The position numbers and the translations under genes were made by a program. Shown here in pieces: positions 12,753-29,907 of a stretch of 56,154 nt of DNA (the stretch's first letter is position 1; each line of letters begins with the position of its first letter). Source of the stretch: a bacterium (GTDB lineage Bacteria; Krumholzibacteriota; Krumholzibacteriia; LZORAL124-64-63); contig WJIQ01000238.1 of the NCBI GenBank assembly GCA_014730255.1, positions 1-56,154 on the forward strand, given 5' to 3'. The notes below the pieces were generated by a model. It saw only the letters and a list, made by a program, of their open reading frames with translations, did no database searches and was not told the DNA's origin.

Positions 12753-13259
12753 ATGTTGAGGATCACCAAGGCGGAGGATCAGGCCGTGCGGCTGGTCATG
12801 CAGCTGGCGACCAGTGGCGAGCAGCTCACCCTCGGGCAGCTCGCCGAGCGGGAGGCCTTGCCTGAGCCGACCGTCGCCAAGCTCCTCGGGCAGCTGCGGC
12901 GCGGCGGCGTGGTCGAGGCGATCCGGGGACGGCACGGCGGCTACACGCTGGCCGGCACCCCGGACGAGATCTCGGCCGGTCAGGTGCTGCGGGCCCTCGG
13001 GTCCGATCCGGCGCCTGATCATCCGTGCGTGGTCGATCCCAGCAACGGCGGCGACTGCCCGCGCACCGAGGACTGCGGACTGAGGGCGGTCTGGCGACAT
13101 CTCCAGATCCAGGTCAACGGTCTGCTCGAGAAGACGACGATCGCCGATCTGCTCCGCGTCGAGGACAACGTCGGCGGACGCCTGCACCAGCTCTGGCCGC
13201 GCGAGGACGGCGGATCGTCCGAGACCCCGGCCCCCAACGCCTACTCCGAAGGAGCCTGA
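12753..13259 (+). CDS. Rrf2 family Fe-S cluster regulator (IscR-like)
   Basis: Winged helix with RGRHGGYTLA; three cysteines in C..DCPRTEDC followed by W-x-H; first gene of the suf operon. Confidence 0.9.
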   Translation: MLRITKAEDQAVRLVMQLATSGEQLTLGQLAEREALPEPTVAKLLGQLRRGGVVEAIRGRHGGYTLAGTPDEISAGQVLRALGSDPAPDHPCVVDPSNGGDCPRTEDCGLRAVWRHLQIQVNGLLEKTTIADLLRVEDNVGGRLHQLWPREDGGSSETPAPNAYSEGA

Positions 13260-13264
13260 ATTCC

Positions 13265-14038
13265 ATGAGCGATTCCCGCAACACGCCCATCTTCTCCTGC
13301 CACGACGTGCACGTGTCCGTCGAGGGCAAGGAGATCGTCAAGGGTGTCGACCTCGAGGTCGGCGCCGGCGAGAAGCATGCCCTGATGGGGCCGAACGGCT
13401 CGGGCAAGTCGACCCTGGCCGCCGCGCTGATGGGGCATCCCGGCCTCGAGGTCACCGGCCGGATCGAGCTCGCCGGGGAGGACATCAGCGAGCTCGAGGC
13501 CGACGAGCGCGCCCGGCTCGGCCTGTTCCTCGGGTTCCAGTACCCGGTGGCGGTGCCCGGCGTCACGGTCGCGAGCTTCCTGCGCGCGGCGATGTCCGCG
13601 CGCCAGGGGCGTGACGTGCCGGTCAAGGAGTTCCGCCTGAAGATGCAGGCGGCGTTCGAGGCCCTCGGCGTGCCCCGCGACTTCGCGGGCCGGTACCTCA
13701 ACGACGGGTTCTCCGGGGGCGAGAAGAAGCGCCTGGAGATCATGCAGATGGCGCTGCTGGAGCCGCGCATGGCCCTGCTCGACGAGACCGACAGCGGCCT
13801 GGACATCGACGCGCTGAAGATCGTCTCCGCCGGCGTCAACGAGGCCACCGGGTCGGAGACCGGCGTGCTGATGGTCACGCATTACCAGCGCATCCTCGAC
13901 TACATCAAGCCGGACGTCGTGCACGTCTTCATGGACGGGCGCATCGTCCGTACCGGCGGCCCCGAGCTCGCCCACGAGCTCGAGGAGCGCGGGTACGACT
14001 GGCTCGCCGACACCACCACCGCCAGCGCGGGAGGTTGA
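13265..14038 (+). CDS. sufC: Fe-S cluster assembly ATPase SufC
   Basis: Walker [39 protein letters not shown]. Confidence 0.97.
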
Positions 14039-14040
14039 CC

Positions 14041-15448
<1,408 letters not shown>

Positions 15449-15456
<8 letters not shown>

Positions 15457-16744
15457 CACCGCAACCGATGGAACGAGCGCGGCCCTGGACAGCCGTCGGC
15501 CGTTGCTCGCGACCGAGGACGTCGCGGCCTTCAGCCGGACCCTCGGCGAGGCGCCGATGGGCGCCCAGTGGCGCCAGCGCGCCGCCGAGGTGGCGGCCAC
15601 GATCGACTACCCCGATCGGGTGCGCCATCTCTGGAAGTACACCGACCCGGGTCGCCTCGCGCCGCAGCGTTCGCTGCTGCAGGTCCCGCAGGAGGTCGCG
15701 CCGTTCGACCTGCCCGACACGCCGGCCGTGCTGATCCAGCCCGGTCGGGCGCCGCAGCCCAACGCCGCGGCCATCGCCAGCGGCATCGAGGTGCGCGCCC
15801 TGCTGCACCAGGACGCCGACGTCGAGTGGATCGGCCGGGCCGTGCCCGCCGACCACGGGTACTTCGAGGCGATGAACGCGGCGGCGTTCAACGCCGGCGT
15901 GCTCGTGCGCATCCCGCGCCGCCACGTCGCCGAGGCGCCGCTGCGTCTGGTGATGGCCGCCGAGGCCGGCCGGGACGTGCTGCCGCGCGTGCTGGTCATA
16001 GCCGAGGAGTCGTCGCAGGCGACCGTCGTCGAGGACCACACCGGCGGTGGCGACGGCGCGGTCGTGATCGGCGTGACCGAGCTTCTCGCCGGCGACAACG
16101 CCGACCTGCACCACGTGCTGGTGCAGCGCTGGCAGGACGGCACCGTGGGGCACCTGACCCATCGCGCGGAGGTCAGCCGCGACGGGAAGTACCTCGGGGC
16201 GATCGCCGGCTTCGGCGGCGACGTCGCCAAGGCCGATCTCGGCGGGATCCTCGCCGGCCCGGGGGCTCGCAGCGAGATGATCGGCGTGACCCTGCCGGAC
16301 CGGCGGCAGCGCCTGGACCATCACACGCTGCACCGGCACACCAGCGGCCACACCTGGAGCAACATCGACTTCAAGGCGGCCGTCTCCGGCCGGGCACGGT
16401 CGGCCTACACCGGCCTGCTCCGCATCGAGGCCAACGCGCCGAGCAGCGAGGCGTACCAGGAGAACCGCAACCTCCTGCTCTCGGAGCGGGCGCACGCCGA
16501 CACGATCCCCGAGCTCGAGATCCTCACCGACGAGGTCAGCTGCAGCCACGGCGCGACGGCGGCCCCCATCGATCCCGAGCAGATCTTCTACCTCCAGTCG
16601 CGCGGGATCCCCGCGGACCGGGCGCTCCGCCTGGTCGTGCGCGGCTTCGTCGAACCGACCCTGCAGCAGGTTCCCGGGGGCCTGCGCGCCGAGCTCGAGG
16701 AGCTCGTCGAGGAGCGGCTGGCGCGCCTGGAGGGGAGTGCCTAA
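15449..16744 (+). CDS. sufD: Fe-S cluster assembly protein SufD
   Basis: [35 protein letters not shown]. The TTG start overlapping the sufB stop is uncertain. Confidence 0.92.
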
Positions 16745-17060
16745 CGTGGCCTGGACGAGGCTCATCGCACTCGACGAGGTGCCGGTGGGGACCGCGCGAG
16801 CGGTGCGTGCCGGGCCGGACGATCTCCTGGTCTGCCGGACCGGGGCCGACGCCGTGCACGTCCTGGAGGACGTCTGCAGCCACGACGACGCCCCGATCGG
16901 AGATCAGGAGATCGCCGACGGCATGGTGACCTGCCCACGCCACGGGGCCCGCTTCGACTGCGCCACCGGAGACGTGCGCCGCAGCCCGGCGCCCGTGGGG
17001 ATCGAGGTCTTCCCCTCCCGCATCGAGGCAGGGTGGATCGAGGTCGAACTGGAGGACTGA
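16737..17060 (+). CDS. Rieske [2Fe-2S] ferredoxin
   Basis: CSH and CPRHGARFD Rieske ligand motifs; lies within the suf operon. Confidence 0.9.
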   Translation: MPNVAWTRLIALDEVPVGTARAVRAGPDDLLVCRTGADAVHVLEDVCSHDDAPIGDQEIADGMVTCPRHGARFDCATGDVRRSPAPVGIEVFPSRIEAGWIEVELED

Positions 17061-17062
17061 GG

Positions 17063-18319
17063 ATGCCGCAGGGATCGCACACCGACCTCGCCGGATCGCC
17101 GGCGGGAGGGCTGTTGCGAGACCGCTTCCCGCTGCTGGAACGTCGCATCGGCGATCGTCCGCTGTGTTATCTGGACACCGCGGCCACGAGCCAGAAGCCG
17201 GAGGCCGTGCTCGCCGCCCTCGATCGCTATCACCGCCGGAGCAACGCCAACGTGCACCGGGGCCTGAACACCCTGGCCGCCGAGGCCACCGAGGCGTACG
17301 AGACCTGCCGCCGGCGCGTGGCCGGTCTGGTCGCCGCGCCGACGCCGGAGTCGGTGGTGATCACGCGGGGGGCGACCGCCAGCCTCAACCTGCTCGCCCG
17401 GGGCCTCGAGCACGAGCTCGAGCCCGGCGACGAGATCCTGCTGACCGAGATGGAGCACCACGCGAACCTCGTGCCGTGGCAGATGCTCGCCCGCCGGCGC
17501 GATCTCACGCTCCGGTTCGTTCCGGTCACCGACGACGGCGAGCTCGACCTCTCCGGCCTCGACGCGCTGATCACCGACCGCACGCGCCTCGTCGGCCTGG
17601 TCCATACGAGCAACGTGCTCGGGACGATCAACCCGGTGGCGGAGATCGCCGGGGCCGCGCGCGAGCGCGGCGCGCTCGTGGTCGTCGACGCGGCCCAGAC
17701 CATCGGCCATGCGCCCCTGGCGTTCGACGACCTGGGCGCCGACGCGCTCGTCTTCTCGGCCCACAAGGCGTACGGCCCCATGGGCCTGGGTTTCCTGGTC
17801 GCCCGTCCGGCATTGCTCGAGCGCCTCGAGCCCATGGAGGGCGGCGGCGAGATGATCGAATGGGTGCACCTCGAGTCGTCGACCTGGGCGGCGATCCCGC
17901 ACCGCTTCGAGGCCGGCACGCCCAACGTCGCGGCGGCGGCCGCGTTCCCGGCGGCGATCGACCTCGTCGAGGAGGTCGGGCTCGAGACCATCCGCGACCA
18001 CGAGCGGAGCATCACCGCCCATGCCCTCGAGGCGCTCGAGGCGCTCGGCGGCCTGACGATCTACGGTCCGCGCGACTCCGCCGCTCGTGGCGGCCTGGTC
18101 TCGTTCTGGGATCCGGACGTGCACCCGCACGATCTGAGCACGATCCTCGATCAGGCCGGCGTCATGGTCCGGGCGGGCCACCACTGCGCGCAGCCCCTGC
18201 ACCGGCGACTCGGCGTGCCGGCGACCACGCGCGCGAGCTTCGGACTCTACACCCGCCTCGACGAGATCGACGCCCTGATCGAGGGCCTCGTGGCAGCCAG
18301 AAAGGTGTTCGGACGCTGA
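17063..18319 (+). CDS. sufS: Cysteine desulfurase SufS
   Basis: YLDTAATSQKP, EHHANLVPWQ, PLP lysine in SAHK, RAGHHCAQP. Confidence 0.96.
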   Translation: MPQGSHTDLAGSPAGGLLRDRFPLLERRIGDRPLCYLDTAATSQKPEAVLAALDRYHRRSNANVHRGLNTLAAEATEAYETCRRRVAGLVAAPTPESVVITRGATASLNLLARGLEHELEPGDEILLTEMEHHANLVPWQMLARRRDLTLRFVPVTDDGELDLSGLDALITDRTRLVGLVHTSNVLGTINPVAEIAGAARERGALVVVDAAQTIGHAPLAFDDLGADALVFSAHKAYGPMGLGFLVARPALLERLEPMEGGGEMIEWVHLESSTWAAIPHRFEAGTPNVAAAAAFPAAIDLVEEVGLETIRDHERSITAHALEALEALGGLTIYGPRDSAARGGLVSFWDPDVHPHDLSTILDQAGVMVRAGHHCAQPLHRRLGVPATTRASFGLYTRLDEIDALIEGLVAARKVFGR

Positions 18320-18834
18320 TGGACGGACCGATGGACTCCCTGTACCGCGAGGTGGTGCTCGACCACCATCGCAACCCCCGGGGCTCCCGCCCGCTCGACG
18401 ACTACGACGTGCAGGCCTCCGGCAAGAACCCCAGCTGCGGCGACGAGGTCACCCTGCAGGTGCGCTTCGACGGCGAGCGCATCGCCGGCGTGGGCGTCCT
18501 GAGCCAGGGCTGCGCCATCTCGACCTCGAGCGGCAGCATGATGGCCGAGCTCATCGAGGGCCGCTCGCTCGACGAGGTCGAGACGATCGCCGATCGCTTC
18601 AAGGCCGTCATGCACGGCGACGACATCCCGACCGACGTCGACCTCGGCGACCTCGAGGCGCTCGAGGGCGTGCGGCAGTTCCCCGTGCGGATCAAGTGCG
18701 CGCTGCTGCCGTGGATCACGCTGCTCGACGCGCTGATCGCGCATCACCAGGGCCGCGAGCCCGATGTCATCTCCACCGAGGGCCTGACCGAGGATGGCCG
18801 GCCCATGGACGTCACCCTGGAGGACCGACGATGA
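18319..18834 (+). CDS. sufU: SUF system scaffold/sulfur-transfer protein SufU
   Basis: LYREVVLDH, NPSCGDE, GCAIS, RIKCALLPW. Alternative start at 18331. Confidence 0.93.
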   Translation: MDGPMDSLYREVVLDHHRNPRGSRPLDDYDVQASGKNPSCGDEVTLQVRFDGERIAGVGVLSQGCAISTSSGSMMAELIEGRSLDEVETIADRFKAVMHGDDIPTDVDLGDLEALEGVRQFPVRIKCALLPWITLLDALIAHHQGREPDVISTEGLTEDGRPMDVTLEDRR

Positions 18835-19154
18835 ACGAAGCGAAGCCCACGCCCGAGGGGGTGCTCGACGCCCTGCGTCCGGTGATCGATCCCGAGCTGA
18901 ACATCTCGATCGTCGATCTGGGGCTCGTGCGCGGCGTCAGCATCCAGGACGACACCGGCCACGTCGACGTCGACCTGACCCTCACCAGCCCCATGTGCCC
19001 GCTCGGTCCGGAGATCATGGCCGCCACCAAGAACGCGGCCGAGAAGGTCCCGGGCGTCAGCGGCTGCGAGGTCCAGCTCGTGTGGTCGCCGATGTGGGAT
19101 CCGCACGTGGACGCCTCGGACGACGCCAAGGCCGAGCTGGGCATCTGGGACTAG
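18831..19154 (+). CDS. sufT: DUF59 / SufT metal-sulfur cluster assembly factor
   Basis: VIDPELNISIVDLGLV, TLTSPMCP, LVWSPMW. Confidence 0.9.
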   Translation: MNEAKPTPEGVLDALRPVIDPELNISIVDLGLVRGVSIQDDTGHVDVDLTLTSPMCPLGPEIMAATKNAAEKVPGVSGCEVQLVWSPMWDPHVDASDDAKAELGIWD

Positions 19155-22100
19155 GGGCCCAGCCGCTTGACCAGCCCGCCTCGCTGCCGGTCGACCGTGA
19201 ACCCGAGCCCGGCGAAGAACCCGCGCAGGCTGAAGTGCGTGCGCAGGACCTCGTGCCCGGCGTCGGCCAGGCGACGCGTGAAGTCGTCGAGGAGGTTGCG
19301 GGCCAGCCCGCGCCCCTGCAGCGATCGCGTGATCACCACGCCGTCGAGGTGGGGTTCGCCGGAGGCGTCCAGGCGCCAGACCACCCCACCGGCCAGCTGC
19401 TCGTCCGTGTCGACCACCACGAGGTGGTGGTCGACCTCGCTGAACTCCAGCGGGAAGTTCGCACGCAGGAACTGCCGGTAGAGGCGACCCATCTCGGCCG
19501 CATCGCGCGGTTCGCGCACGGTATAGACGACCCCCCGGTCATCCTGGATCTCGGACTGCAGGACGACGTGCTCACGGGCGCGGTCGCCGATGGGCTGGAC
19601 CGCGGGCCGCGAGGTGCCGGCCATCCGGGGGAAGGCCAGCCGCGCCAGCACCTCGCGCTGCTCGGTGCTCTCGAGGGCGTCCTGCAGGTCGCTCAGCTCG
19701 ACCGTGCGCATCGCTCGCAGCTCGGGGTGCCGGAAGAGCTTGGCCAGCAGCCGGTCGCACGCCTCGCGCGCCGCCTCCGGCGCCGAGGCGAGGAACGTGT
19801 CGCGGAACAGCGTGAGCACGCCCAGCTCGCCCTCGCGATCGAGCCGGTAGAGGCGGATCAGAGCCTCGATCTGATCGCCGCGCGCCCGCGCCGACGCGTC
19901 GGGATTCTCCGCGCGCCAGGTGTGAAAGCGCTCGGTCGCGCCCTCGACGGCGAGGTTCGGCACGTAGCGTTCGCGGAGCAGCTCGGCGTGGCGCCGCACC
20001 TCGACCGCGAGGTCGGGGGCGGCCTCGGGCAGCGGCTCGCGCTCGAGGGCGGCCGCGACGTCGTCCAGGAAGGCTGCGCCGTCGTGTTGCCCGAGCGCCT
20101 CGGACACCGCCTCGAGCAGCCAGCGATCCTCGAGCATCCCCTGCACGGCCGGGTAGTGGCGATCGGGCAGGCGCAGGAAGTTCTTCAGGAGCGGGCGCAC
20201 CAGGTCCAGCGGCCCGGTGCAGTCCCGCCAGCCGGCCAGGCTGATCATCAGGCGCCCGCGTTGCCAGTCGCGCTCGGGCACGCTGACGTTCGACGGGGTG
20301 ACCATGCCGGGCACGATCTTGCGGCCGGAATGCTTCCACGCGGTCAGGACCGTGGCCATGCCGGCGACCATCAGCCGCCGCCACCCGCCGCGCCCGAGCT
20401 CGGCGGCGTCGGCCGTCGTGGTCGCGTGACGACGGATGTGGTCCCAGACGGTCAGCCCGCTGGCGAAGGCCAGCGAGGCGGCGCCCAGGTCGCCACGCAG
20501 GGCGCCCAGACGCGGCAGGACCGGCGCCTCGGCCGGCCACGAGCGGATCGCGGCCACCAGGTTGAACGTGCGCGCGACCGCGGGGTCGTCGAGGTCGGTG
20601 CGTAGGATCACCAGGAGGTCGAAGTGCCGGCCCGTCTCGGTGTTGACGCTCACCCGGTAGCGCGAGGGGAAGGGCTGCGAGAAGGTACGACTGACCCAGA
20701 TGCCGCCCTGGGGAACGGTCGAGAGGTCGAGCCGCGCGTCGAACGCCACGGCGACCGACTCGGCCAGGAACGTCGTGTCCTCCAGGACGCGGCGCAGCGA
20801 GGCGATCTCCCCGTCGTCGAGGCCTTCCTGGAACACGAGCACGTCCGTCCAGTCGACGTCGCGCTGGGACTCGGCGAGGTGCTGCAGGTGCCAGTCGGTC
20901 AGCGCCCGCCGCATGGCGACGGCGTGGTCGGCGAGCTCGGGGTCACGGTCGAACAGCTGCCAGCAGATCAGCTCGCGCCGCACCGTGGCGACGTTCTCGG
21001 GGTGGTGGCGCGCGAAGTCCACGAGGAGCTGCAGCAGGTCGGCGAAGATGCGCCGGATCTCGGGCGTCGCCGGCCATTCGAGGTGGCGACGGTAGGCGTG
21101 AAGCCGGCGTCGGAAGCTCAGCAGGCGACGAGGCTCGCGCGCCCCGCCGGCGATGGCCGCGATGCTGTCCTCGCAGAGGAACGGACGCCCCGAGGTGACG
21201 AACGCCGGCAGGTAGCGGCCATAGTCGGGCTCGGGGTCGTCGAGCACGAGGATGCGGTAGGCCTCGCAGCGGATGGCCAGCTCGGGATGGCCGGCGAGCG
21301 CCTCGAGGCGGCGTCGCAGCAGCAGCGCCTCGCGCGGCGGCGCCTTGGGCAGGCGCGCCTCGATGGCCAGGACCGCCTCGCGCGCGGGCTCGAGGTCGCC
21401 GAACAGGGCCGTCTGCACCAGGTCGTCGATCTCGCCGAGCCGGTCGTCGCGGCGCGGCGGGCAGATCTGGCGACCGCTGGTCGCCTCGCGCGCCGGCAGC
21501 AGGACCTGCTCGTCGACGCCCACGAACCGCGCGTCCCATCCTCCGCGACAGGGCAGGAAGCTCTGCAGGCTGGGGTTGCCGACCCACAGCAGGGGCTGGC
21601 GCGCGAACTGGCCGAGGTCGAGGCCGCGCTCGTCCGCGAGCGGGCGGTACTCGAGGTCGCCCAGCCGGAGCCAGCCCGGCCGGCGTCCGTCGTCGATCTC
21701 GAGGCGGGCGCCGGTCCGGCGGTTCACGATCGCGTCGCCGTCGACGGCGAGCTCGTCCTCGAGCACGTTCAGGTCGCGCAGGACCCAGTCCGGGATCAGC
21801 AGCGTACGGTCGCGCCAGGTGAGCGTCGGGCGGCGATAGAGCTGCGCGAGCAGGTCGGAGAAGTTGGCCGCGATCTGCTTGCGTCGCAGCGATCCCTTGG
21901 GCGTCAGCTCGCCCTCGTCGGCGGAGAACTCGCGATCGAGGACCGCGAAGTTGACGACCCGTTCGTAGGCGGCGAGGTCGAGGTTGGCCTGGCTGACCAC
22001 GCGGTGGTAGTACGCGTCGCGCTCGGCGTCGCTGCGGCCGGCGATGACCGGGTCGTCCGGGTCGGGCACGATCAGGAGCACGTTGTAGGGGCGGCCGTCG

Positions 22101-23701
22101 CCGGCCAGGAAGGTGCTCTTGATGCCGGGTACGCCGGCGAACCGGGACTCGACCTTGCGCGGGGCGACGGTCTGGCCGCGGTTGTTCTTGTAGATGTCCT
22201 TGATGCGATCGACGATGCGCAGGTGCCCGTCGGGGAGGGTCTCGAAGAGGTCGCCGGTGCCGAGCCACTGGTCGTCGGCCGCCGGATCGCCGGTCGACAG
22301 GTCGCCGGGCTCGTCGTCGGGCGGCAGGTAGCGCGCGACGTACGGGCCGGCCACCTGCAGCTCGCCGTCCTCTCCGATGCGGACCGCGACGCCGGGCAGC
22401 GGCCGGCCGACCGAGTCCTCGCGGTACTCGCCGGGCGGGGTCATCGTCAACCCGCCGGTGCCCTCGGTCATGCCGAAGCCGCTGCACAGCTCGACGCCCT
22501 GGCCATGGAACCACCGGAAGGTGTCCGGCGCGAGCCAGCCCGCGGCGGACAGGCCCCAGCGCAGGCGGCCGCCGGTGACGTCGCTGAGCGCGGTGGCCGG
22601 GTCGGCCTCGGTCCGCTCGCGGATCTGCTGCCAGCGCAGGGGCACGGAGATCAGGCCCGTCGGGTGCAGGCGCTGCATGCCGCCGAACAGCGCGTCGGCC
22701 GACGGGTTGCCCGCCAGGGCGTAGGTTCCGCCCCAGTAGAGCATGCCCATCAGCTCGAGGTAGCGGCCGAAGGTGTGGTAGAGCGGCAGGAAGGCGACGA
22801 GCAGCTCGTCGCGGCCGACCGCCGGCAGCGCCGCCGCGCGGGCGAATCGCTTGCTCACCAGGTTGAAGGGCGTGAACGCGATCCCCTTGGGCCGGCCGGT
22901 CGACCCGCTGGTGAACAGCACGGTGCAGGTGTCGTCCAGGCCGAGGCGCGGGCGGATGGCGAGGCGGCGGCCGATCTCCTCGGCGGACAGGTCGGCCAGG
23001 TCGTGGGCCAGCAGGCGGACCCGCTCGTCGTCCGACGCGTGGCCGCTGAGCAGGTGGATCGTGAACGGCCGACCGACCCGATCGCGGATCTCCAGCGCCC
23101 GCTGCAGACGGTCCGGGGTGTCGACCACGAGGTCGGCGACGGCCAGGCGGTCGCAGATCCACGCCAGCGTGGCCGTGTCCTCCTGGATGTTCAGCGGCGC
23201 GACCGGGATGTCGTGGACCAGGCAGGCGAGGTCGACGATGATCCCGTCCAGCGTGTTGGCCGACAGCAGGGCGACCGGCGCGCGGGGGCGGTCCAGCGGC
23301 CCGGGTCCCAGGAGCCTGGCCGCCACGCCGCGGGCGCGCTGGGCGGTCTGCTGGTACGTCAGCGCCGGCTCGTCGGGGCGCCCGAGGTCGTGCAGGTAGG
23401 TGACCTCGCCGCGCGTGCGGACGCGCCAGTCGAGCAGCGCGGCGAGGCCGAAGTCGCTCCGCCGCAGGGCCCAGAACACGAGGTCGGCCCACGCATGGCG
23501 CGCCTCGCGATCGGGCAGCGAGATCAGGAACGCCGACTCGCCCGTGGTCTCGAGGAACCGCCGCCAGAGGTCGTCCGACCCCAGGTCGGACGCCCGGGCC
23601 GTCGAGGCCGCCGCCGCGAGCTGCGGCGCGAGCTCCGGATCGGGATCGGCGGCGTCGCGCCAGAGGTCGAGCAGGCGTGCGAGCTCCTGGTCGGGCCTCA
23701 T
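19151..23701 (-). CDS. 1516-aa multidomain protein: AMP-binding (long-chain acyl-CoA synthetase-like) + central region with kinase-like segment + C-terminal GNAT
   Basis: FTSGSTGRPKG, FLPLYHTFG, GFGMTE, TGDL, IVDRIKDI and ELTPKGSLRR; GNAT motif A VVITRSLQGRGLARNLL and GFFAGLGF. The ATG overlaps the hemG stop (ATGA). Confidence 0.88.
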   Translation of the reverse strand: MRPDQELARLLDLWRDAADPDPELAPQLAAAASTARASDLGSDDLWRRFLETTGESAFLISLPDREARHAWADLVFWALRRSDFGLAALLDWRVRTRGEVTYLHDLGRPDEPALTYQQTAQRARGVAARLLGPGPLDRPRAPVALLSANTLDGIIVDLACLVHDIPVAPLNIQEDTATLAWICDRLAVADLVVDTPDRLQRALEIRDRVGRPFTIHLLSGHASDDERVRLLAHDLADLSAEEIGRRLAIRPRLGLDDTCTVLFTSGSTGRPKGIAFTPFNLVSKRFARAAALPAVGRDELLVAFLPLYHTFGRYLELMGMLYWGGTYALAGNPSADALFGGMQRLHPTGLISVPLRWQQIRERTEADPATALSDVTGGRLRWGLSAAGWLAPDTFRWFHGQGVELCSGFGMTEGTGGLTMTPPGEYREDSVGRPLPGVAVRIGEDGELQVAGPYVARYLPPDDEPGDLSTGDPAADDQWLGTGDLFETLPDGHLRIVDRIKDIYKNNRGQTVAPRKVESRFAGVPGIKSTFLAGDGRPYNVLLIVPDPDDPVIAGRSDAERDAYYHRVVSQANLDLAAYERVVNFAVLDREFSADEGELTPKGSLRRKQIAANFSDLLAQLYRRPTLTWRDRTLLIPDWVLRDLNVLEDELAVDGDAIVNRRTGARLEIDDGRRPGWLRLGDLEYRPLADERGLDLGQFARQPLLWVGNPSLQSFLPCRGGWDARFVGVDEQVLLPAREATSGRQICPPRRDDRLGEIDDLVQTALFGDLEPAREAVLAIEARLPKAPPREALLLRRRLEALAGHPELAIRCEAYRILVLDDPEPDYGRYLPAFVTSGRPFLCEDSIAAIAGGAREPRRLLSFRRRLHAYRRHLEWPATPEIRRIFADLLQLLVDFARHHPENVATVRRELICWQLFDRDPELADHAVAMRRALTDWHLQHLAESQRDVDWTDVLVFQEGLDDGEIASLRRVLEDTTFLAESVAVAFDARLDLSTVPQGGIWVSRTFSQPFPSRYRVSVNTETGRHFDLLVILRTDLDDPAVARTFNLVAAIRSWPAEAPVLPRLGALRGDLGAASLAFASGLTVWDHIRRHATTTADAAELGRGGWRRLMVAGMATVLTAWKHSGRKIVPGMVTPSNVSVPERDWQRGRLMISLAGWRDCTGPLDLVRPLLKNFLRLPDRHYPAVQGMLEDRWLLEAVSEALGQHDGAAFLDDVAAALEREPLPEAAPDLAVEVRRHAELLRERYVPNLAVEGATERFHTWRAENPDASARARGDQIEALIRLYRLDREGELGVLTLFRDTFLASAPEAAREACDRLLAKLFRHPELRAMRTVELSDLQDALESTEQREVLARLAFPRMAGTSRPAVQPIGDRAREHVVLQSEIQDDRGVVYTVREPRDAAEMGRLYRQFLRANFPLEFSEVDHHLVVVDTDEQLAGGVVWRLDASGEPHLDGVVITRSLQGRGLARNLLDDFTRRLADAGHEVLRTHFSLRGFFAGLGFTVDRQRGGLVKRLGP

Positions 23702-25128
23702 GCCGCGGCCCTCGCGTGCAGGTGATCGCGCACGCGGTCGGCGACGCGCGAGGCGTCCTTCATGCAGGCGTTGACGGCGATCCCGTGGTAGCTGCTGCCG
23801 GCGAGCACCAGGCCGGGCGTGCGCGCGAGCGCGTCCTCGAGCCGGGCCAGGCGCGCGAGGTGGCCCACCTCGTACTCGGCGATGGCCTCGCGCCAGGGGA
23901 AGACCCACGAGCGGATCGGCTGGCCGCGCAGGCCGTAGAGGTGATCCAGCTCGGCGCACGTGCGCCGGACGACCTCCTCGTCGGGCAGGTCGAGCCAGGA
24001 CTCCTCCCCGCTCATGCAGCGCAAGAGGACCGTGCCCTCGGGCGCGCGCGCCTGCCAGATGCTGCTGGTCCAGAGCACGCCCAGCAGCGGTCGCTTCTCG
24101 GTGCTCGGGGTCAGCATGCCGAAGCCGTCGAGGGGGTGGACGACATCCTCGCGCCGGAAGGCCACCGCCGTGACCACGATCGGATTGTAGCGGATCCCCG
24201 CCAGCAGCTCGCGCACCTCCGCGTCGGGGTGGTAGTGGCAGGCGGCATGCGCGGGGGCGGAGTCGACGACCGCCGCGAACGGTCCGAGGCGCTGGTCCCC
24301 GGTGGTGATCCACCAGCCCTCGTCGCCCGGCTCCAGACGCTCGACCGCCCCGCCGGTGCGGACCTCGCCACGCAGGCCGTCCGCCAGCGCGCGCGGCAGC
24401 GTCTGCATGCCGCCGCGGAAGCTGGTGAGCACCCCGCTCGGTCCGCCGGTCTCGCCCTCGCGCGCCTTGCCCTCGCGACGACGCTGGCGGCCCAGGGCGA
24501 TCATCGCCCGGAACAGACCGCCGTGATCGTGCTCCAGCTCGACCATGCGCGGGAACGCCGCGGCCAGCGACACGCGCCGGCACTCGCCGCCGGTGATGCC
24601 GCGGACCATGGGATCGAGCATGGTGTCGGCGAACGCGCGGCCGAGCCGCCGCTGCCCGAATTCCCACACCGTCTCGTCGGTGTCCGGCGCCTCGGCCGCA
24701 CGGCCGAGGTCCGCCCGCCGGGGGACGAGGATCTCGCCGAGCATGCGCAGCTTGGCCGGCCAGGAGAAGAGGTCGCTGGCGAGGAACGCTCCCGGGGAGG
24801 TGGGAATCTCGCGCACCTTGCCCCGCACGTACAGGAAACGCCGGCGCGCGGCGTCGCTCGAGCGGATCAGCTGATCGCCGAGGCCGGCGGCGCGCGCGAG
24901 CTCGAGCGTGGCGGGTTCACTGTCGAGGAAACCGTTGGCGCCCTGTTCGACCCGGAACTCGCCGTCGACGGTGGTCCGGAGGTTGCCGCCCACCTCGGAC
25001 GCGGCCTCGAGGACCGTGACCTCGGGGACCGGAGCGGTGGGGTCGTCCGGGTTCTCCAGGCGCCAGGCGACCGCCAGGCCGGCCACCCCGCCGCCGATGA
25101 TCGCCACGCGCGGACCGACGTCAGGCAT
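23698..25128 (-). CDS. hemG: Protoporphyrinogen oxidase (FAD-dependent HemY/HemG type)
   Basis: IIGGGVAGL dinucleotide-binding motif, EQGANGF, SFRGGMQ, GFGML, AGSSYHGIAVNAC. Confidence 0.93.
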   Translation of the reverse strand: MPDVGPRVAIIGGGVAGLAVAWRLENPDDPTAPVPEVTVLEAASEVGGNLRTTVDGEFRVEQGANGFLDSEPATLELARAAGLGDQLIRSSDAARRRFLYVRGKVREIPTSPGAFLASDLFSWPAKLRMLGEILVPRRADLGRAAEAPDTDETVWEFGQRRLGRAFADTMLDPMVRGITGGECRRVSLAAAFPRMVELEHDHGGLFRAMIALGRQRRREGKAREGETGGPSGVLTSFRGGMQTLPRALADGLRGEVRTGGAVERLEPGDEGWWITTGDQRLGPFAAVVDSAPAHAACHYHPDAEVRELLAGIRYNPIVVTAVAFRREDVVHPLDGFGMLTPSTEKRPLLGVLWTSSIWQARAPEGTVLLRCMSGEESWLDLPDEEVVRRTCAELDHLYGLRGQPIRSWVFPWREAIAEYEVGHLARLARLEDALARTPGLVLAGSSYHGIAVNACMKDASRVADRVRDHLHARAAA

Positions 25129-26218
25129 GAGCCACCTCCCGCGACTCGACGAGTCCGAACGCCCGGAAGGCGAGGCGATCGGCGAGCGACTGCAGCCATC
25201 CGGGGTCGAGGTTCAGCGCCGGCGTCCGCTGGAACGTCTCCGCGCCCGCGGCACGCACCGCGGCGGCCAGCTCGTCGTCCAGCTCGTCCAGGGTCTCGAT
25301 GTGCTCGCAGTTGAAGCTCACCGGAACGACGGCGAGATGACGCACGCCGCTCGTGACGAGCTCGATGCAGGTCTCCTCGGTGGGAGGACCGATCCAGCGG
25401 ACCGGCCCCACCTTGCTCTGGAAGACGAGCCGCGGCTCGGCCCCGCCGGTCGCCAGCGAATCGACCGGCCACGTGTCGTCGAGGCCCCGCCGGAGCCGCG
25501 CGTGGACCGCGCGCACCGTCGCCCGGGTCTGCCGCACGTAGGCGTCGCCGCCGCGGTGGAACCGCTCGGGCAGGGAGTGGGCGGTGTAGACCAGCGCGCA
25601 GCGGGCGGGATCGCGGTCCGCCTCCCGCCAGGAGTCGATCACCGCCCGGCCATGGCGGGCGAGCAGATCGACGTAGCCGGTCAGGAGCGGCCACTCGCGC
25701 AGCACGTGGCGCGGCGGCGACCAGCCGACGGCCGCCAGCACGCGATCGAGCTCGCGGAGGCTCGAGCCGGTGGTCGCCACGCTGTACTGCGGGTACGTGG
25801 GCACGACGAGCAGCTGCCGGGCGCCGGCCGCGCGCAGCGTCTCGACGGCCTCCTCGCTGAAGGGATGCCAGTAGCGCATGGCCACCGCGGGGGTGACCTC
25901 GACGCCGCGCTCGCCGAGTCGCCGGGCGAGCTCGGCCGCCTGCTTCGCGGTCCAGTCGAGCTGGGGCGATCCGCCGCCGTGGCCGAGGCCGCGATACTTC
26001 GCGCGGACCTCGTCGACCCGCCGGGCGACGATCACCCGCCCCAGCGGTCCGGAGAGCCATCGCGGCAGCGGCAGCACCATCGGGTCGGCGAAGAGGTTGC
26101 GCAGGAACGGCGCCACCGATTCCTCGCGGTCGGGGCCACCGAGGCCGAGGAACACGAGGCCCGTCGGCGCGTCGGCCGCGAGCCGGGTGGCCGGCTGCAG
26201 GGGCGGTGCGAAGCGCAT
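25121..26218 (-). CDS. hemH: Ferrochelatase
   Basis: LGGPD, GGGSP, MRYWHPF, YPQYSVATTGS, AHSLP, FQSKVGP, EHIETLDELD; AGGAG SD before ATG at 26218. Confidence 0.95.
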   Translation of the reverse strand: MRFAPPLQPATRLAADAPTGLVFLGLGGPDREESVAPFLRNLFADPMVLPLPRWLSGPLGRVIVARRVDEVRAKYRGLGHGGGSPQLDWTAKQAAELARRLGERGVEVTPAVAMRYWHPFSEEAVETLRAAGARQLLVVPTYPQYSVATTGSSLRELDRVLAAVGWSPPRHVLREWPLLTGYVDLLARHGRAVIDSWREADRDPARCALVYTAHSLPERFHRGGDAYVRQTRATVRAVHARLRRGLDDTWPVDSLATGGAEPRLVFQSKVGPVRWIGPPTEETCIELVTSGVRHLAVVPVSFNCEHIETLDELDDELAAAVRAAGAETFQRTPALNLDPGWLQSLADRLAFRAFGLVESREVAHA

Positions 26219-26232
26219 GCGCGGGCTCCTTC

Positions 26233-27603
26233 CTAGACCGTCCGCGAGTAGCGAGGCCGGTCGTCCTCGGGATCGTCGAGGTAGGCGTCGAATTCCATGG
26301 CGACGTTGCGCAGGAAGAACCGGCCGAGGTCGGTCACGTGCAGGCCGGCCTGGTCGAGCGTGATGAGCCCCTCGCCCGCCAGCGGCTCCAGACGCGCCTC
26401 GATGCCCCCGATCAGCTCGGGCACCGTCGCGCCCCAGGACTCGCGGGTGACCTCCCAGGGCAGCTCCAGGTTGCACATCAGGTGCAGGATCACCGAGCGC
26501 CGCATGCGGTCCTCCGCGGACAGCTCCAGGCCGCGGACCACGGGCAGCTCGCCGCGGGCGACGGTCTGCTCGTACGGGTCCACCAGGGGCGTGTTCTGGG
26601 CGAACCGGTCGCAGACGTCGCCGATGGCGCTGTTGCCGAAGGCGAGCATGTCCAGCGTCGGACGGGTGGAGTAGCCCATGAAGTTGCGGTGCAGCCGGCG
26701 CTCGGCCAGCGCGACCGCCAGCTCGTCCTCCGGACGGGCGAAGTGGTCCAGGCCGATCCAGACGTAGCCCGCCTCGGTGAGCGTCTCGACCGCCTGCTGG
26801 TAGAGCGCGAACCGCTCCGGCCCCGAGGGCAGGGCGGCCTCGTCGATGGCCGCCTGGTGCGGCTTGGCCCACGGCACGTGCGCGTAGCCGAAGACGGCCA
26901 GCCGGTCCGGATCCAGGTCGAGGACGCGCGCGAGCGAGTCGGCGAAGATCTCGGGCGTCTGGTGCGGCAGGCCGTAGACCAGGTCGAGGTTGACGCTCTC
27001 GAAGCCGGCGTCGCGCGAGGCGTCGACCCAGCGGCGAGTGACCTTCTCGGGCTGCCGGCGGCCGATCGCCTCCTGCACGGCCGGGTCGAAGTCCTGCACT
27101 CCCATGCTGATGCGATTGAAGCCCAGCTCGCGCAGCAGGTAGGGCTGCTCGCTCTTCGCCGCCCGGGGGTCGCATTCGAGGGAGAGTTCGCCGGTGAGCT
27201 CGAAGCGGTCGGCGAGCAGCTGCCAGGTGCGCCGGATCTGCGCGTCGGTCTGGTAGTTCGGCGTGCCGCCGCCCCAGTGCATCTGGCTGACCCGCCGCCG
27301 GCCGATGCGCGCGCAGACCAGGTCGAGCTCGCGCTCGAGGTGATCGAGGTAGCGGTCGACGTCGGACCGGCACTCGGGCACGGCGGCGTTGCAGCCGCAG
27401 TAGTGGCAGCGCCTGACGCAGTAAGGCAGGTGCACGTAGACGCTGGTCTCGCGGTCGGGCGCGGCGGCCAGCGCATCGAGCGCGGCCCGCCACTGGTCGG
27501 CACCGAAGTCGCTGGTCCAGGCCGGCACCGTCGGATAGCTGGTGTACCGGGGCCCGGGGCGGTCCAGACGCGTGAGCAGGTCGGGGGAGACGTCGACGCG
27601 CAA
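26233..27603 (-). CDS. hemN: Oxygen-independent coproporphyrinogen III oxidase (radical SAM)
   Basis: GPRYTSYP, CVRRCHYC, HWGGGTP, IGLDHFA, LHRNFMGY, FDAY; TTG start. Confidence 0.96.
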   Translation of the reverse strand: MRVDVSPDLLTRLDRPGPRYTSYPTVPAWTSDFGADQWRAALDALAAAPDRETSVYVHLPYCVRRCHYCGCNAAVPECRSDVDRYLDHLERELDLVCARIGRRRVSQMHWGGGTPNYQTDAQIRRTWQLLADRFELTGELSLECDPRAAKSEQPYLLRELGFNRISMGVQDFDPAVQEAIGRRQPEKVTRRWVDASRDAGFESVNLDLVYGLPHQTPEIFADSLARVLDLDPDRLAVFGYAHVPWAKPHQAAIDEAALPSGPERFALYQQAVETLTEAGYVWIGLDHFARPEDELAVALAERRLHRNFMGYSTRPTLDMLAFGNSAIGDVCDRFAQNTPLVDPYEQTVARGELPVVRGLELSAEDRMRRSVILHLMCNLELPWEVTRESWGATVPELIGGIEARLEPLAGEGLITLDQAGLHVTDLGRFFLRNVAMEFDAYLDDPEDDRPRYSRTV

Positions 27604-27604
27604 A

Positions 27605-28645
27605 TCAGTCCTCCGGCTGGTGGCGGTGCACGGTGTCGATCAGGAGGGCGAGCGCCTCGGGCGGCGTCTCGGTCAGGATGCCGTGGCCGAGGTTGAAGAC
27701 GTGGCCGGCCGCGCGGTCGCCGGACCGGCACACGGCCTCGGCCCGGCGCACGATCTCCGTCTCGCTGCCGTGCAGGACCACCGGGTCCAGGTTGCCCTGC
27801 AGGGGCGTCCGGGGCGCGCGCTCGGCGGCGTCGGCGAGGTCGCAGGTCCAGTCCAGCGACAGCGCGTCCGCGCCGGTCTCCAGCAACCAGGGCAGGTTGG
27901 TCAGACCACCCTTGCTGAACAGGATGCGGGGTACGCCCAGGGGGGCGAGCCGCGCCATGATCTTCGCGATGCCGGGCACGGCGAAGCGGCGGTAGTCGTC
28001 GGTGTGCAGGATGCCCGCCCAGCTGTCGAAGACCTGCACCGCCGAGCAGCCCGCCTCGACCTGCATCTCCAGGTGCCGTGCGACCTGCTCGGCCAGCTTG
28101 TCGAGCAGGGCGACGGCGACCTCGGGACGGCTGTAGATCAGGGCCTTGATGTGGCGGAAGTCCTTGCTGCCGCCGCCCTCGACCAGGTAGGAGGCGAGGG
28201 TCAGCGGGGCGCCGCCGAACCCGATCAGCGGGATCTCCGGCCTCTCGGAGGTGACCAGCCCGATCGCCTCGGCGACGAAGCCCAGTTCCTCGCGGGGCTC
28301 GACCAGCTCGAGCGCCTCGAACGCCCGCTCCTCGCGCAGGGGCGCGGTGAGCTTCGGGCCGCCCTGGGAGAAATCGAACTCCGCGCCCATGGGGCCGAGC
28401 GGGGTGAGGATGTCGCTGAAGATGATCCCCGCGTCGAGGTCGAAGCGGCGCAGGGGCTGCAGCGTGACCTCGGCCGCGAGCTCGGGCGTGGTGCACATCG
28501 TGTGGAACGAGGCGGTCTCGCGCACCTTCCGGTACTCCGGGAGGTATCGGCCCGCCTGCCGCATGACCCAGATCGGGCGACGGGAGGGGCGCCGGCCGGC
28601 GAGGACGGCGAGGAAGGGGGAGGATTCCGGGGTCGGCCGGGTCAT
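27605..28645 (-). CDS. hemE: Uroporphyrinogen decarboxylase
   Basis: PIWVMRQAGRYLPEY, IFSDIL, QVFDSW, QGNLDP, FNLGHGI; ATG at 28645. Confidence 0.96.
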   Translation of the reverse strand: MTRPTPESSPFLAVLAGRRPSRRPIWVMRQAGRYLPEYRKVRETASFHTMCTTPELAAEVTLQPLRRFDLDAGIIFSDILTPLGPMGAEFDFSQGGPKLTAPLREERAFEALELVEPREELGFVAEAIGLVTSERPEIPLIGFGGAPLTLASYLVEGGGSKDFRHIKALIYSRPEVAVALLDKLAEQVARHLEMQVEAGCSAVQVFDSWAGILHTDDYRRFAVPGIAKIMARLAPLGVPRILFSKGGLTNLPWLLETGADALSLDWTCDLADAAERAPRTPLQGNLDPVVLHGSETEIVRRAEAVCRSGDRAAGHVFNLGHGILTETPPEALALLIDTVHRHQPED

Positions 28646-28707
28646 CGTTGTATCCTTGCTCGGGGTGATGGAGTTGCGACCAAAGATAGCCTCTTTGGTG
28701 GCGCGAG

Positions 28708-29907
28708 TCACGGACGGTCCGCCGGGTTCCGGCGCGCGCGGCGATGGAGGACCACCTGGCCGGCGATGGCGACGGTCACGAGCGCGGCGGCGAACCAGTA
28801 TGGAGCGGCCAGGCCGAGGCCCCGGTCGACCAGCACGCCGGCGATCAGGGGAGGCAGGAACCCGCCGGCACCGATCAGGCCCTCGTGGATCCCGGCGCGC
28901 TGGCCGCGCGTCGCGGGGTTCTGCAGGCTGGCGGTGATGCTGGCCTGGTAGGCCACGCCGCAGCCGAGGCCCACCAGCGGGGCGGTCAGGATCAGGCCCG
29001 CGAACCCTCCGAGCCAGGGCAGGATCACCAGGGCCGCCAGGTGCCCGAGCTGCGGAACCCAGAGACGGGCCTCGGTCCAGCGCACGCGGTTCAGCCGGCC
29101 CAGGACCCAGAACAGCAGCGTCTGGCTGCCCAGGATGGCGCCCAGATACCAGCCGTACAGGTCGGCCTGCCAGCCGCGGTGCTCGAAGAACTGCGGCAGG
29201 TGGTAGGTGAGGATGCCGAAGGAGCCGTAGGCGGCGGTGTTGGCCAGCCAGCTCATGGCGAGCAGCGCGGCCGGCTGCGCGGGCGCCGCCGGCAGCGGCG
29301 CCGTGGCCGGGCCGGTCGGTTCGTCGCCCGGCGCGCCGGTCTGCGGACCACGCTCGCGCGGCAGGGTCAGGGCGGCCGCGATCACGCAGCCGGCGCCCGT
29401 CAGGTAGGTGGCCTGGAAGCCGGCGGTCGACAGCAGCAGGCCGCCGACCACGAAGCCCAGGCTCTTGCCCGTCGACCAGGCGAGGTTGAACCGGCCGAGC
29501 ACCACGCCCTGGTCGGCCGGCGGCGTGCGATCGCCGATGGTCGCCTGCACCGGCGGCCAGTAGAGCGCCTTGCCCAGGCCCATGAGCACCTGCAGGCCGA
29601 TGAGGACCTCCAGCCACGGCACGAGCCAGGCGGCGACCGCGCAGGCCACGAGGGAGAATGCCCCGGCCGTCGACAGGAGACGCCGCGGCACGCGGTCGCT
29701 CAGGCGACCGATGGTCGGCGCGGCCACGATGTACGAGGCCGCGCCGACGGCGGCGATCGTGCCGAGGGCCACGCTGCCGCCGCCGAGCGCGAGCACCTTG
29801 AACGGCATCGCCGCCATGATCAGGAAGAAGCCACCATCCATGCCGGCCGGCGAGAGGAAGTAGCCGACCGGCAGGGACCGTCCGCGGGTGGCTCGGCGCG
29901 CAGGCAA
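28708..29907 (-). CDS. MFS transporter
   Basis: About 12 hydrophobic segments; motif A GRLSDRVPRR. The TTG start is uncertain. Confidence 0.85.
   Translation of the reverse strand: MPARRATRGRSLPVGYFLSPAGMDGGFFLIMAAMPFKVLALGGGSVALGTIAAVGAASYIVAAPTIGRLSDRVPRRLLSTAGAFSLVACAVAAWLVPWLEVLIGLQVLMGLGKALYWPPVQATIGDRTPPADQGVVLGRFNLAWSTGKSLGFVVGGLLLSTAGFQATYLTGAGCVIAAALTLPRERGPQTGAPGDEPTGPATAPLPAAPAQPAALLAMSWLANTAAYGSFGILTYHLPQFFEHRGWQADLYGWYLGAILGSQTLLFWVLGRLNRVRWTEARLWVPQLGHLAALVILPWLGGFAGLILTAPLVGLGCGVAYQASITASLQNPATRGQRAGIHEGLIGAGGFLPPLIAGVLVDRGLGLAAPYWFAAALVTVAIAGQVVLHRRARRNPADRP

Follow-up and report, generated by a model that had tools for sequence, protein, structure and literature searches.

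A predicted acyl-CoA synthetase–GNAT fusion family of about 1500 residues and its very probably lineage-specific linkage to haem biosynthesis genes

Introduction

Positions 1 to 56,154 of contig WJIQ01000238.1 (GenBank assembly GCA_014730255.1), which stems from a bacterium of the Krumholzibacteriota, are referred to here as the window. They contain a long gene, called the fusion gene in the following:

19151..23701, minus strand: fusion gene for an acyl-CoA synthetase (ACS) part, a middle scaffold and a GNAT domain, 1516 amino acids (aa); recognized from the open reading frame (ORF), Pfam and homologues

The fusion gene is the fifth gene after hemE, hemN, hemH and a gene for protoporphyrinogen oxidase (PPO), and the locus therefore raises the question whether its place behind genes for haem synthesis reveals what the encoded protein does. 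A sequence-only reading of the window had suggested that a single polypeptide could activate a carboxylic acid, either a fatty acid or a porphyrin propionate, and transfer the acyl group through the GNAT domain to a protein or a small molecule, that this could amount to a haem- or porphyrin-modifying or an acylation-based regulatory system, and that the coupling to the hem genes could also be incidental. Our analysis leads to a two-part answer, and both parts very probably hold together: the protein belongs to a widespread, uncharacterised family of single-chain enzymes of about 1500 aa, and the linkage to hem genes is specific to one lineage.

A protein family spread across many phyla

The middle region alone (residues 625–1414), used as a query, retrieved 166 proteins at E ≤ 0.001, and it is for this reason that we regard the fusion ORF as a real gene and not as a chance reading frame. 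Nearly all of the 120 homologues listed among these 166 are 1450–1590 aa long and contain AMP-binding and AMP-binding_C_3 domains, and most of them also a GNAT domain. Database names, where given, are generic ('AMP-binding protein', 'long-chain acyl-CoA synthetase', 'GNAT family N-acetyltransferase'). Searched with a profile, 1.84 billion representative sequences yielded 433 clusters (50% identity) at E ≤ 0.001, of which 332 remained at 1e-10 and 220 at 1e-30. The top 150 of the 433 are either full-length, with the middle region at about residues 640–1440, or fragments. Fragments aside, domain order and length are constant throughout the 120 listed homologues and these 150 clusters. No stand-alone or split middle region came to light; there were only fragments on short contigs or pieces starting at an internal conserved methionine. 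An apparently split gene in a Myxococcales homologue (L095), with a frame change at 9960–10030 between adenylation part and middle region, was set aside as a frameshift that is probably due to an assembly indel.

With one genome taken per species, a relative is encoded in 217 of 272 candidate stretches. For a survey of public loci, 80 loci were kept, all of them from metagenome-assembled genomes (MAGs) and with taxa given as labelled in the records. Seventeen bear labels beginning with 'Krumholzibacteri-', 18 fall into groups of the Acidobacteriota (Holophagales, Thermoanaerobaculia, Aminicenantes and others) and six are labelled 'Gemmatimonad-'; these are joined by Eisenbacteria (3), Ignavibacteriaceae/Kapaibacterium (2), Myxococcales/Deltaproteobacteria (2), Latescibacterota, Calditrichaeota and Bacteroidota (1 each), eight loci labelled Fibrobacter(aceae), one labelled Eubacteriales and 20 labelled plainly as 'bacterium'. 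The fusion gene occurs in 19 of 24 genomes of the window's own family and, outside this family, in one of 16 genomes of the same class. Its closest named relatives among the matches listed are Krumholzibacteriia MAGs with 72–77% identity. In the window's genome it is a single-copy gene without a paralogue, as the next best match of hidden Markov models (HMMs) of five segments to the 24,525 six-frame ORFs of that genome had an E value of 0.049. When the protein is divided into eight segments, the median identity of 55 members from outside the genus to the window's protein amounts to 33% (N-terminus), 52, 60, 41, 45, 42, 36 and 40% from the N- to the C-terminus.

The sequence-only reading had left room for the architecture being an already characterised one. 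A full-text literature search provided no description of the fusion of ACS, middle region and GNAT domain; trans-acting Pat/AcuA–Acs systems alone turned up.

Domains of the fusion protein

From the N- to the C-terminus, the fusion protein can be divided into the following parts:

23429..23701, minus strand: N-terminal extension, residues 1–91, poorly conserved (median identity 33% in the 55 homologues from outside the genus)
22334..23428, minus strand: AMP-binding large subdomain, residues 92–456 (Pfam, motifs)
21830..22333, minus strand: adenylation C-terminal subdomain, residues 457–624, FadD11-like, with AMP-binding_C_3 at 508–624 (Pfam, NCBIfam)
21476..21829, minus strand: D1, residues 625–742, small beta-rich domain without family match (AlphaFold2, Pfam)
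20852..21466, minus strand: D2, residues 746–950, all-helical (AlphaFold2)
20210..20851, minus strand: D3, residues 951–1164, alpha/beta, with a suspected protein-kinase-like fold, as a lead (AlphaFold2, language-model features)
19622..20209, minus strand: D4, residues 1165–1360, all-helical (AlphaFold2)
19154..19621, minus strand: GNAT domain, residues 1361–1516, Pfam match at 1415–1504 (Pfam, AlphaFold2, PDB profile)

On the DNA, Pfam places the adenylation domain at 21830–23428 and the GNAT domain at 19190–19459, in agreement with the sequence-only reading, which had seen an intact adenylation domain at about 21840–23420, a long central region and a terminal GNAT domain at about 19160–19540.

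The adenylation part matches AMP-binding at residues 92–456 (E = 7e-48, 163.7 bits against a cut-off of 29.9) and AMP-binding_C_3 at residues 508–624 (E = 1.3e-9, 39 bits against a cut-off of 20.8). The stretches TSGSTG..K (264–272), SGFGMTE (407–413), TGD (482–484) and DRxKD (498–502), which represent the P-loop (TSGSTGxPK), GxGxTE, TGD and DRxKD motifs of the ANL superfamily, are invariant in 60 of 60 full-length members; identical throughout are T264–G269, K272, S407–E413, T482–D484, D498, R499, K501 and D502. Judged by its sequence, the N-terminal domain is an AMP-forming acyl-CoA synthetase of the ANL superfamily that resembles ACSL and FadD11. Among the NCBIfam models FadD11 fits best (E = 4e-40, residues 378–624), albeit with 137.8 bits against a cut-off of 950, and none of the named fatty-acid CoA ligase equivalogs (FadD11, FadD, FadD3, MenE and others) passed, all 25 NCBIfam families listed staying far below their cut-offs. 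The best solved relative is 6oz1_A (E = 5.9e-21), deposited as 'Oxidoreductase', which we take to be the adenylation domain of a carboxylic acid reductase. The A10 region reads ELT[PA]KGS[YF]RRK, with K602 and R607 present in all 60 and K608 in 59 of the 60 sequences. The fusion protein shares AMP-binding_C_3 with ACSL/FAA1/FadD11 and the adenylation domain of carboxylic acid reductase, and FadD11 and 6oz1 are its best matches; it differs from all of them in that it remains below every equivalog cut-off, has the putative A10 lysine shifted by two residues, contains 890 extra residues and lacks both a carrier and a reductase domain. A PP-binding carrier domain was found by Pfam neither in the whole protein at E ≤ 0.01 nor in residues 625–1414 at E ≤ 10, so that CoA probably serves as acyl acceptor in the first step.

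At the other end of the protein, Acetyltransf_10 (E = 1.2e-5, score 25.7 against a cut-off of 23.6) and Acetyltransf_1 (E = 3.4e-5, 24.5 against 20.7) are matched in Pfam. The sequence QGRGLA at 1462–1467, in which R1464 and G1465 are kept in at least 90% of 70 sequences, corresponds to the CoA pyrophosphate-binding motif of GNATs (Q/R-x-x-G-x-G/A), and by profile the best solved GNAT relative is GCN5 from Tetrahymena (E = 2.1e-7). By these defining features of its sequence, the C-terminal domain is a GNAT acyl-CoA N-acyltransferase.

The middle region of about 790 aa (residues 625–1414) between the two domains has no match to any Pfam family at E ≤ 10. NCBIfam does not have a family for it either, a weak match to RimI being limited to the GNAT domain, and profile searches against PDB sequences retrieved nothing there at E < 0.1, since all significant matches (down to 2.1e-7) fell into the GNAT domain. 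An AlphaFold2 model of residues 625–1516, calculated from a 70-sequence alignment, has a mean pLDDT of 87.7 and a pTM of 0.85, and because of these high values residues 625–1516 are predicted to form one packed body without a loose linker. In the model, D3 consists of three strands, one helix, two strands, two helices, short hairpins and further helices, an order of strands and helices that we take to be that of the protein-kinase-like fold. Language-model features point in the same direction for residues 951–1224, for which the Kdo, APH, ABC1/RIO1, WaaY and Pkinase clusters of the Atlas are nearest (0.92–0.94) and eight of the ten best share a clan; for the middle region as a whole, the two nearest clusters are unnamed hypothetical proteins (0.92) and kinase-like clusters reach 0.83. 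Comparison of the middle region by hhalign with 26 Ser/Thr kinase domains of the relatives remained non-significant (Prob 6%, P = 0.006), and 21 APH domains gave a Prob of 0.2%, as against 96% in the control comparison of Ser/Thr kinase with APH domains. One stretch aligned in the non-significant comparison pairs the kinase hinge and 'HRDLKPxN' with 'VPGxVxPxN'; in that same non-significant alignment the position of the catalytic aspartate is variable, while N1138 is present in 70 of 70 and D1145 in at least 90% of the 70 sequences. As a lead, D3 may hold a degenerate kinase-like fold. A search for the ABC1 family in the relatives matched only the catalytic loops of Ser/Thr kinases.

A hem linkage confined to one genus

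The operon that precedes the fusion gene and the gene that faces it are composed as follows:

27605..28645, minus strand: hemE, uroporphyrinogen decarboxylase, first gene of the operon (Pfam, NCBIfam)
26233..27603, minus strand: hemN, oxygen-independent coproporphyrinogen III oxidase (Pfam, NCBIfam)
25121..26218, minus strand: hemH, ferrochelatase, with its ATG at 26218 behind GGAAGGAG (NCBIfam)
23698..25128, minus strand: PPO of the HemY/FAD type, the TGA of which overlaps the fusion-gene ATG (Pfam, NCBIfam)
18696..19154, plus strand: SufT-like Fe–S assembly gene, end of the convergent suf operon (Pfam, NCBIfam)

On the minus strand, the frame terminated at 19151 extends without a further stop to 24667, and use of its first GTG would result in 1838 aa. 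Upstream of 23701, this frame overlaps the PPO gene in a different frame. The ATG at 23701 (...GGC ATG A...) gives the 1516 aa, overlaps the TGA of the PPO gene by 4 nucleotides and is preceded at a distance of 7 nucleotides by the Shine–Dalgarno-like sequence GAGGG; the junction reads GAGGGccgcggcATGAgg. As the stop codon of the fusion gene overlaps that of the convergent SufT-like gene, the fusion gene ends the minus-strand operon, and the gene boundaries and terminal operon position given in the sequence-only reading were confirmed. Its gene order hemE-hemN-hemH-hemG also holds as far as the four steps are concerned, because NCBIfam assigns HemE (TIGR01464, 371.6 bits), HemN (TIGR00538, 484.6 bits), ferrochelatase (TIGR00109, 225.9 bits) and PPO (TIGR00562, 227 bits against a cut-off of 97.85), all above their cut-offs; the gene named hemG there, however, encodes a PPO of the FAD amine-oxidase (HemY) type according to Pfam PF01593, which we take to be distinct from the flavodoxin-like HemG. 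Upstream of hemE lie genes for an MFS transporter (28708–29907) and an SNF transporter (29908–31308). The spacer of 62 nucleotides between the stop of the MFS gene and the start of hemE (28646–28707) contains a short inverted repeat, CCAAAGA...TCTTTGG, that could serve as terminator for the MFS gene or as operator for the hem operon.

Is this linkage general? For 16 homologues in related genomes, the surrounding DNA (up to 20 kb) was searched with the hem proteins of the window. The unit hemE-hemN-hemH-PPO was present directly upstream in four of the 16 loci, all from the window's genus, and absent from all ten loci that represent ten other genera of the family, for which 2.3 to 10.5 kb of upstream DNA were available; the sample further contained one more locus from the window's genus and one contig of 4 kb, both without upstream DNA. 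The same picture was obtained for the 80 public loci, a sample that overlaps with that of the 16, so that the counts are not additive: hem genes precede the fusion gene in four, again all from the window's genus, and not one of the 75 loci from outside the genus, 51 of which extend 3 kb or more upstream, contains any of hemE, hemN, hemH or PPO (E ≤ 1e-8, at least half of the query). All four sister genera examined (G012, G015, G016 and G013) possess a contiguous hemE-hemN-hemH-PPO unit that is located on another contig than the fusion gene, and the 12.5–15 kb analysed around this unit contain no sequence similar to that gene. In one sister genus (G023:C29:38340–39812), PPO is matched in two pieces (residues 3–296 and 290–467), which may reflect a frameshift or a split gene.

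Two other genera exhibit the order SNF transporter, MFS transporter, fusion gene, whereas the window's genus has SNF, MFS, hemE-hemN-hemH-PPO, fusion gene. This difference would be explained most simply if the block of four hem genes had been inserted behind the MFS gene and ahead of the fusion gene in the ancestor of the genus. The overlap of 4 nucleotides between PPO stop and fusion-gene start is found in five of five genomes of the genus (ATGA in the window; GTGA, ATGA, GTGA and GTGA in its relatives). Because it is tight and conserved there, co-translation of PPO and fusion gene is likely in the window's genus, as far as can be judged from the DNA, but the arrangement is recent. We regard the hem coupling as a lineage-specific operon rearrangement that says little about the function of the family. 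At the family level, incidental coupling, which the sequence-only reading had mentioned as a possibility, has become the better reading, and the homologues surveyed from outside the window's genus are not linked to hemE, hemN, hemH or PPO. A role in porphyrin metabolism is unsupported, because the linkage is confined to one genus and four sister genera have the hem unit elsewhere without the gene.

Genetic environment in other lineages

All ORFs of the 80 loci were clustered all-against-all. No neighbour is common to more than 17 of the 80, and those that recur are lineage-specific; the protein therefore looks self-sufficient, without a fixed partner. Neither a deacylase nor a lipid-synthesis gene was among the conserved neighbours in this survey. 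Genes for citrate synthase, aconitase and isocitrate dehydrogenase, searched for with the respective proteins of the window's genome, were absent from the surrounding 10 kb or so in all 80 loci. In 17 loci each, the most frequent neighbours, a histidine kinase and an OmpR-type regulator, are encoded immediately upstream. They are followed by convergent downstream genes for a PrsW protease (12 of the 75 loci from outside the genus, to which the counts in the next sentence also refer) and an Rrf2 regulator (13 of these loci). A fusion of Cyt_bd_oxida_I with cytochrome c and, behind it, a partner of about 370 aa are encoded directly downstream on the same strand in 10 and 9 loci, while genes for DsbD_2, a CcoI-like ATPase and a fused CcoNO lie divergently upstream in 6, 6 and 5 loci. 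As the oxidase and hem neighbours are confined to one phylum, they may stem from one ancestral arrangement.

The bd-like pair occurs in several Krumholzibacteriota genera (L024:3015–4601, minus strand, and L024:1882–3018, minus strand; also L023, L027 and L030). Its first member resembles a truncated CydA and carries a c-type cytochrome domain at its C-terminus, and the partner of about 370 aa is without a Pfam match. The pair fits the little-studied OR-C1a/OR-C1b cytochrome bd-like oxidases, for which a description is found in a preprint (bioRxiv 10.1101/2021.01.16.426971). The single-gene fusion of CcoN and CcoO has about 790 aa and is accompanied by DsbD_2 and the CcoI-like P-type ATPase (L029:9385–15356, plus strand; L028, L027, L069, L073, L076, L079, L085 and L115). 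In one other lineage (L071 and L072), a hemC-hemD fusion is located 2 kb upstream of the fusion-gene homologue on the other strand; in L071 (2217–3995, minus strand) it encodes 592 aa comprising porphobilinogen deaminase (HemC) and uroporphyrinogen-III synthase (HemD), and a multihaem cytochrome c gene lies downstream.

In ten loci labelled as Holophagales, Thermoanaerobaculia or other Acidobacteriota, a UPF0047/YjbQ gene follows at a distance of 14–18 nucleotides and is in turn followed by a gene for an S9-peptidase-like protein of about 900 aa (10 loci each). An example is provided by L084:12279–12698 (plus strand) and L084:12700–15444 (plus strand), the latter with a weak prolyl-oligopeptidase/esterase match, and the three genes look like a lineage-specific operon of the Acidobacteriota. 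Four loci carry a gene for lipoate-protein ligase (LplA) upstream in the same orientation (L093:5958–6959, L106:6171–7157, L110:6912–7892 and L078:5060–6061, plus strand), 12 Krumholzibacteriota loci a BPL/LplA-family gene 1–6 kb downstream, and 11 of the 80 loci a gene for an outer-membrane fatty-acid channel of the FadL type 2–7 kb downstream.

Two further observations concern the window itself. Its suf operon (13025–19154, plus strand) consists of sufC, sufB, sufD, a Rieske gene, sufS and the SufT-like gene, the Rieske [2Fe-2S] gene for 107 aa (16737–17060) being inserted between sufD and sufS. At 1567–5475 (minus strand) a protein of 1302 aa is encoded for which a transglutaminase core and DUF3857, near the C-terminal third, are the only matches.

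Possible functions

Two catalytic domains with intact signatures, constant in their order, a conserved compact scaffold and the absence of both a carrier domain and an obligatory partner gene are consistent with a self-contained acyl-activating acyltransferase that would supply its own acyl-CoA. This is still the best reading, and we put its chances at somewhat below even. The part of the sequence-only reading that had one polypeptide activate an acid and transfer the acyl group is thereby retained, whereas its haem/porphyrin part is not. The synthetase domain would convert a carboxylic acid, probably a fatty acid in view of the likeness to ACSL and FadD11, via acyl-AMP into acyl-CoA, the GNAT domain would use this acyl-CoA to N-acylate an amine acceptor, and the role of the middle scaffold would be to hold the acceptor, to select it or to couple the active sites of both domains. 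As the acceptor we favour a protein lysine, because the GNAT domain is nearest to GCN5 and Pat-type enzymes share the overall logic; it is a conjecture that we would sooner expect to fail than to hold. The same logic, an adenylating enzyme coupled to an acyltransferase that brings a free fatty acid to an acceptor, is realized in Aas (2-acyl-GPE acyltransferase/acyl-ACP synthetase) and in FadD33 (MbtM) with MbtK for mycobactin, MbtK being a GNAT that acylates a lysine side chain. Aas, however, works with a PlsC-type acyltransferase and ACP, domains that are missing from the fusion protein, and MbtM and MbtK are separate proteins that use a carrier protein, whereas the fusion is a single chain without a carrier domain.

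Several points weigh against a self-contained acyltransferase of this kind. In the HMMER alignment to 6oz1, the lysine of 'darK', presumably the catalytic A10 lysine, pairs with S604, and the invariant K602 lies two residues earlier. Full adenylation competence is uncertain because the canonical position of the A10 lysine is thus aligned to a serine. The GNAT domain matches generic acetyltransferase models (Acetyltransf_1/7/10) and none of the long-chain N-acyltransferases, and for this reason the donor may be acetyl-CoA instead of the product of the first domain. The kinase-like assignment of D3, a lead, rests on language-model features and the order of secondary-structure elements, and profile–profile comparison was non-significant. 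Finally, co-expression with haem synthesis is real at the DNA level in the window's genus and might be functional.

A self-regulating synthetase has a smaller claim. Here, the GNAT domain would acylate its own adenylation domain at K602 or K608 in the A10 loop and thereby switch it off, with the middle region sensing a metabolite. The A10 loop is indeed unusual and strictly conserved, the GNAT domain is GCN5-like, and Pat and AcuA act likewise in trans on Acs. That AMP-forming CoA ligases are regulated by GNAT-catalysed acetylation of the active-site lysine is well documented (PMC4053389, PMC11255334 and PMC11619455). On the other hand, a stoichiometric regulator of 900 aa on an enzyme of 620 aa would be uneconomical in comparison with catalytic systems acting in trans, and the missing deacylase among the conserved neighbours does not fit either.

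We grant a similarly limited chance to an N-acyl synthase for small molecules or lipids, in which an amine metabolite, amino acid, polyamine or lipid head group would be bound in the kinase-like module in the manner of small-molecule kinases of the APH/Kdo type, and the product would be an N-acyl lipid or signal. Kdo, APH and WaaY, nearest to residues 951–1224 together with ABC1/RIO1, are small-molecule-kinase-like clusters, the ACSL/FadD11-like C-terminal subdomain suggests long-chain acids, and a FadL-type channel is encoded downstream in 11 of the 80 loci. These arguments are countered by the GNAT domain, which comes closest to protein acetyltransferases, unlike the known synthases of N-acyl amino acids or ornithine lipids, and by the absence of a lipid-synthesis gene from the conserved neighbours. 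A GNAT and a kinase-like fold in one chain are known from AAC(6')-APH(2''), in which both domains are active on one drug; the kinase-like fold of the fusion protein, by contrast, is a lead only and seems to be without a conserved catalytic aspartate, and domain order and size differ.

For the Krumholzibacteriota in particular, the protein could conceivably control the haem-dependent respiratory apparatus by acylation or take part in its maturation, which we judge to be improbable. It would sense the supply of fatty acids or acyl-CoA and acylate a protein of haem synthesis or of a terminal oxidase, or make a lipid that these need. This would explain the separate placements of the gene behind hemE-hemN-hemH-PPO, before the bd-like oxidase of the OR-C type and back-to-back with cbb3 assembly genes.

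Pat of Salmonella and PatZ/YfiQ of Escherichia coli resemble the fusion protein in that a large synthetase-related N-terminal part and a C-terminal GNAT domain of the protein-acetyltransferase kind are combined in one chain. In type I and II Pat, the N-terminal acyl-CoA-synthetase-like domain belongs to the NDP-forming superfamily and is catalytically silent, and one could suppose by extension that the fusion protein is a Pat-like protein acetyltransferase whose synthetase domain serves for sensing or oligomerisation only and has no part in supplying the donor. This is very unlikely, as the synthetase is AMP-forming and not NDP-forming, and a dead domain would not be expected to keep its catalytic motifs unchanged throughout 60 sequences that come from many phyla. 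CoA_binding, Succ_CoA_lig and ATP-grasp are not among the five Pfam matches of the fusion protein, and Pat/PatZ does not have the scaffold of about 790 aa without family match between the two domains. The fusion protein would work like Pat/PatZ but is no member of that group, because its N-terminal domain belongs to a different superfamily and looks active.

The slimmest chance of all falls to an enzyme that modifies haem or porphyrins or regulates the hem pathway and is functionally tied to its operon: the overlap with PPO in the window and in four of four relatives from the genus, the placement in other genera of the family directly upstream of the OR-C-type pair (10 of 75) and/or divergently from ccoNO-ccoI-DsbD_2 (5–6 of 75) and the hemC-hemD fusion in one other lineage speak for it, but hemE, hemN, hemH and PPO are missing from the vicinity at 75 of 75 loci from outside the genus and in ten of ten other genera of the family, sister genera keep the four genes as a unit elsewhere, the oxidase neighbours all belong to one phylum and may go back to one ancestral arrangement, and the neighbours found in Acidobacteriota, Calditrichota-like and other lineages (UPF0047, S9-like protein, LplA, sensor kinases) bear no relation to them.

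Implications

An enzyme of about 1500 residues, every part of which is conserved in six or more phyla that are mostly uncultured, is nameless, and half of its length is without a family model, which constitutes a clear annotation gap. The locus is also a warning against deriving function from gene neighbours, as a tight, translationally coupled operon position very probably reflects a rearrangement at the level of a genus; for this reason, the haem context should not enter the annotation of the family. If it is true that the protein spends its own acyl-CoA on lysines, it would represent a new type of bacterial protein-acylation enzyme, one that would link the availability of fatty acids directly to protein modification.

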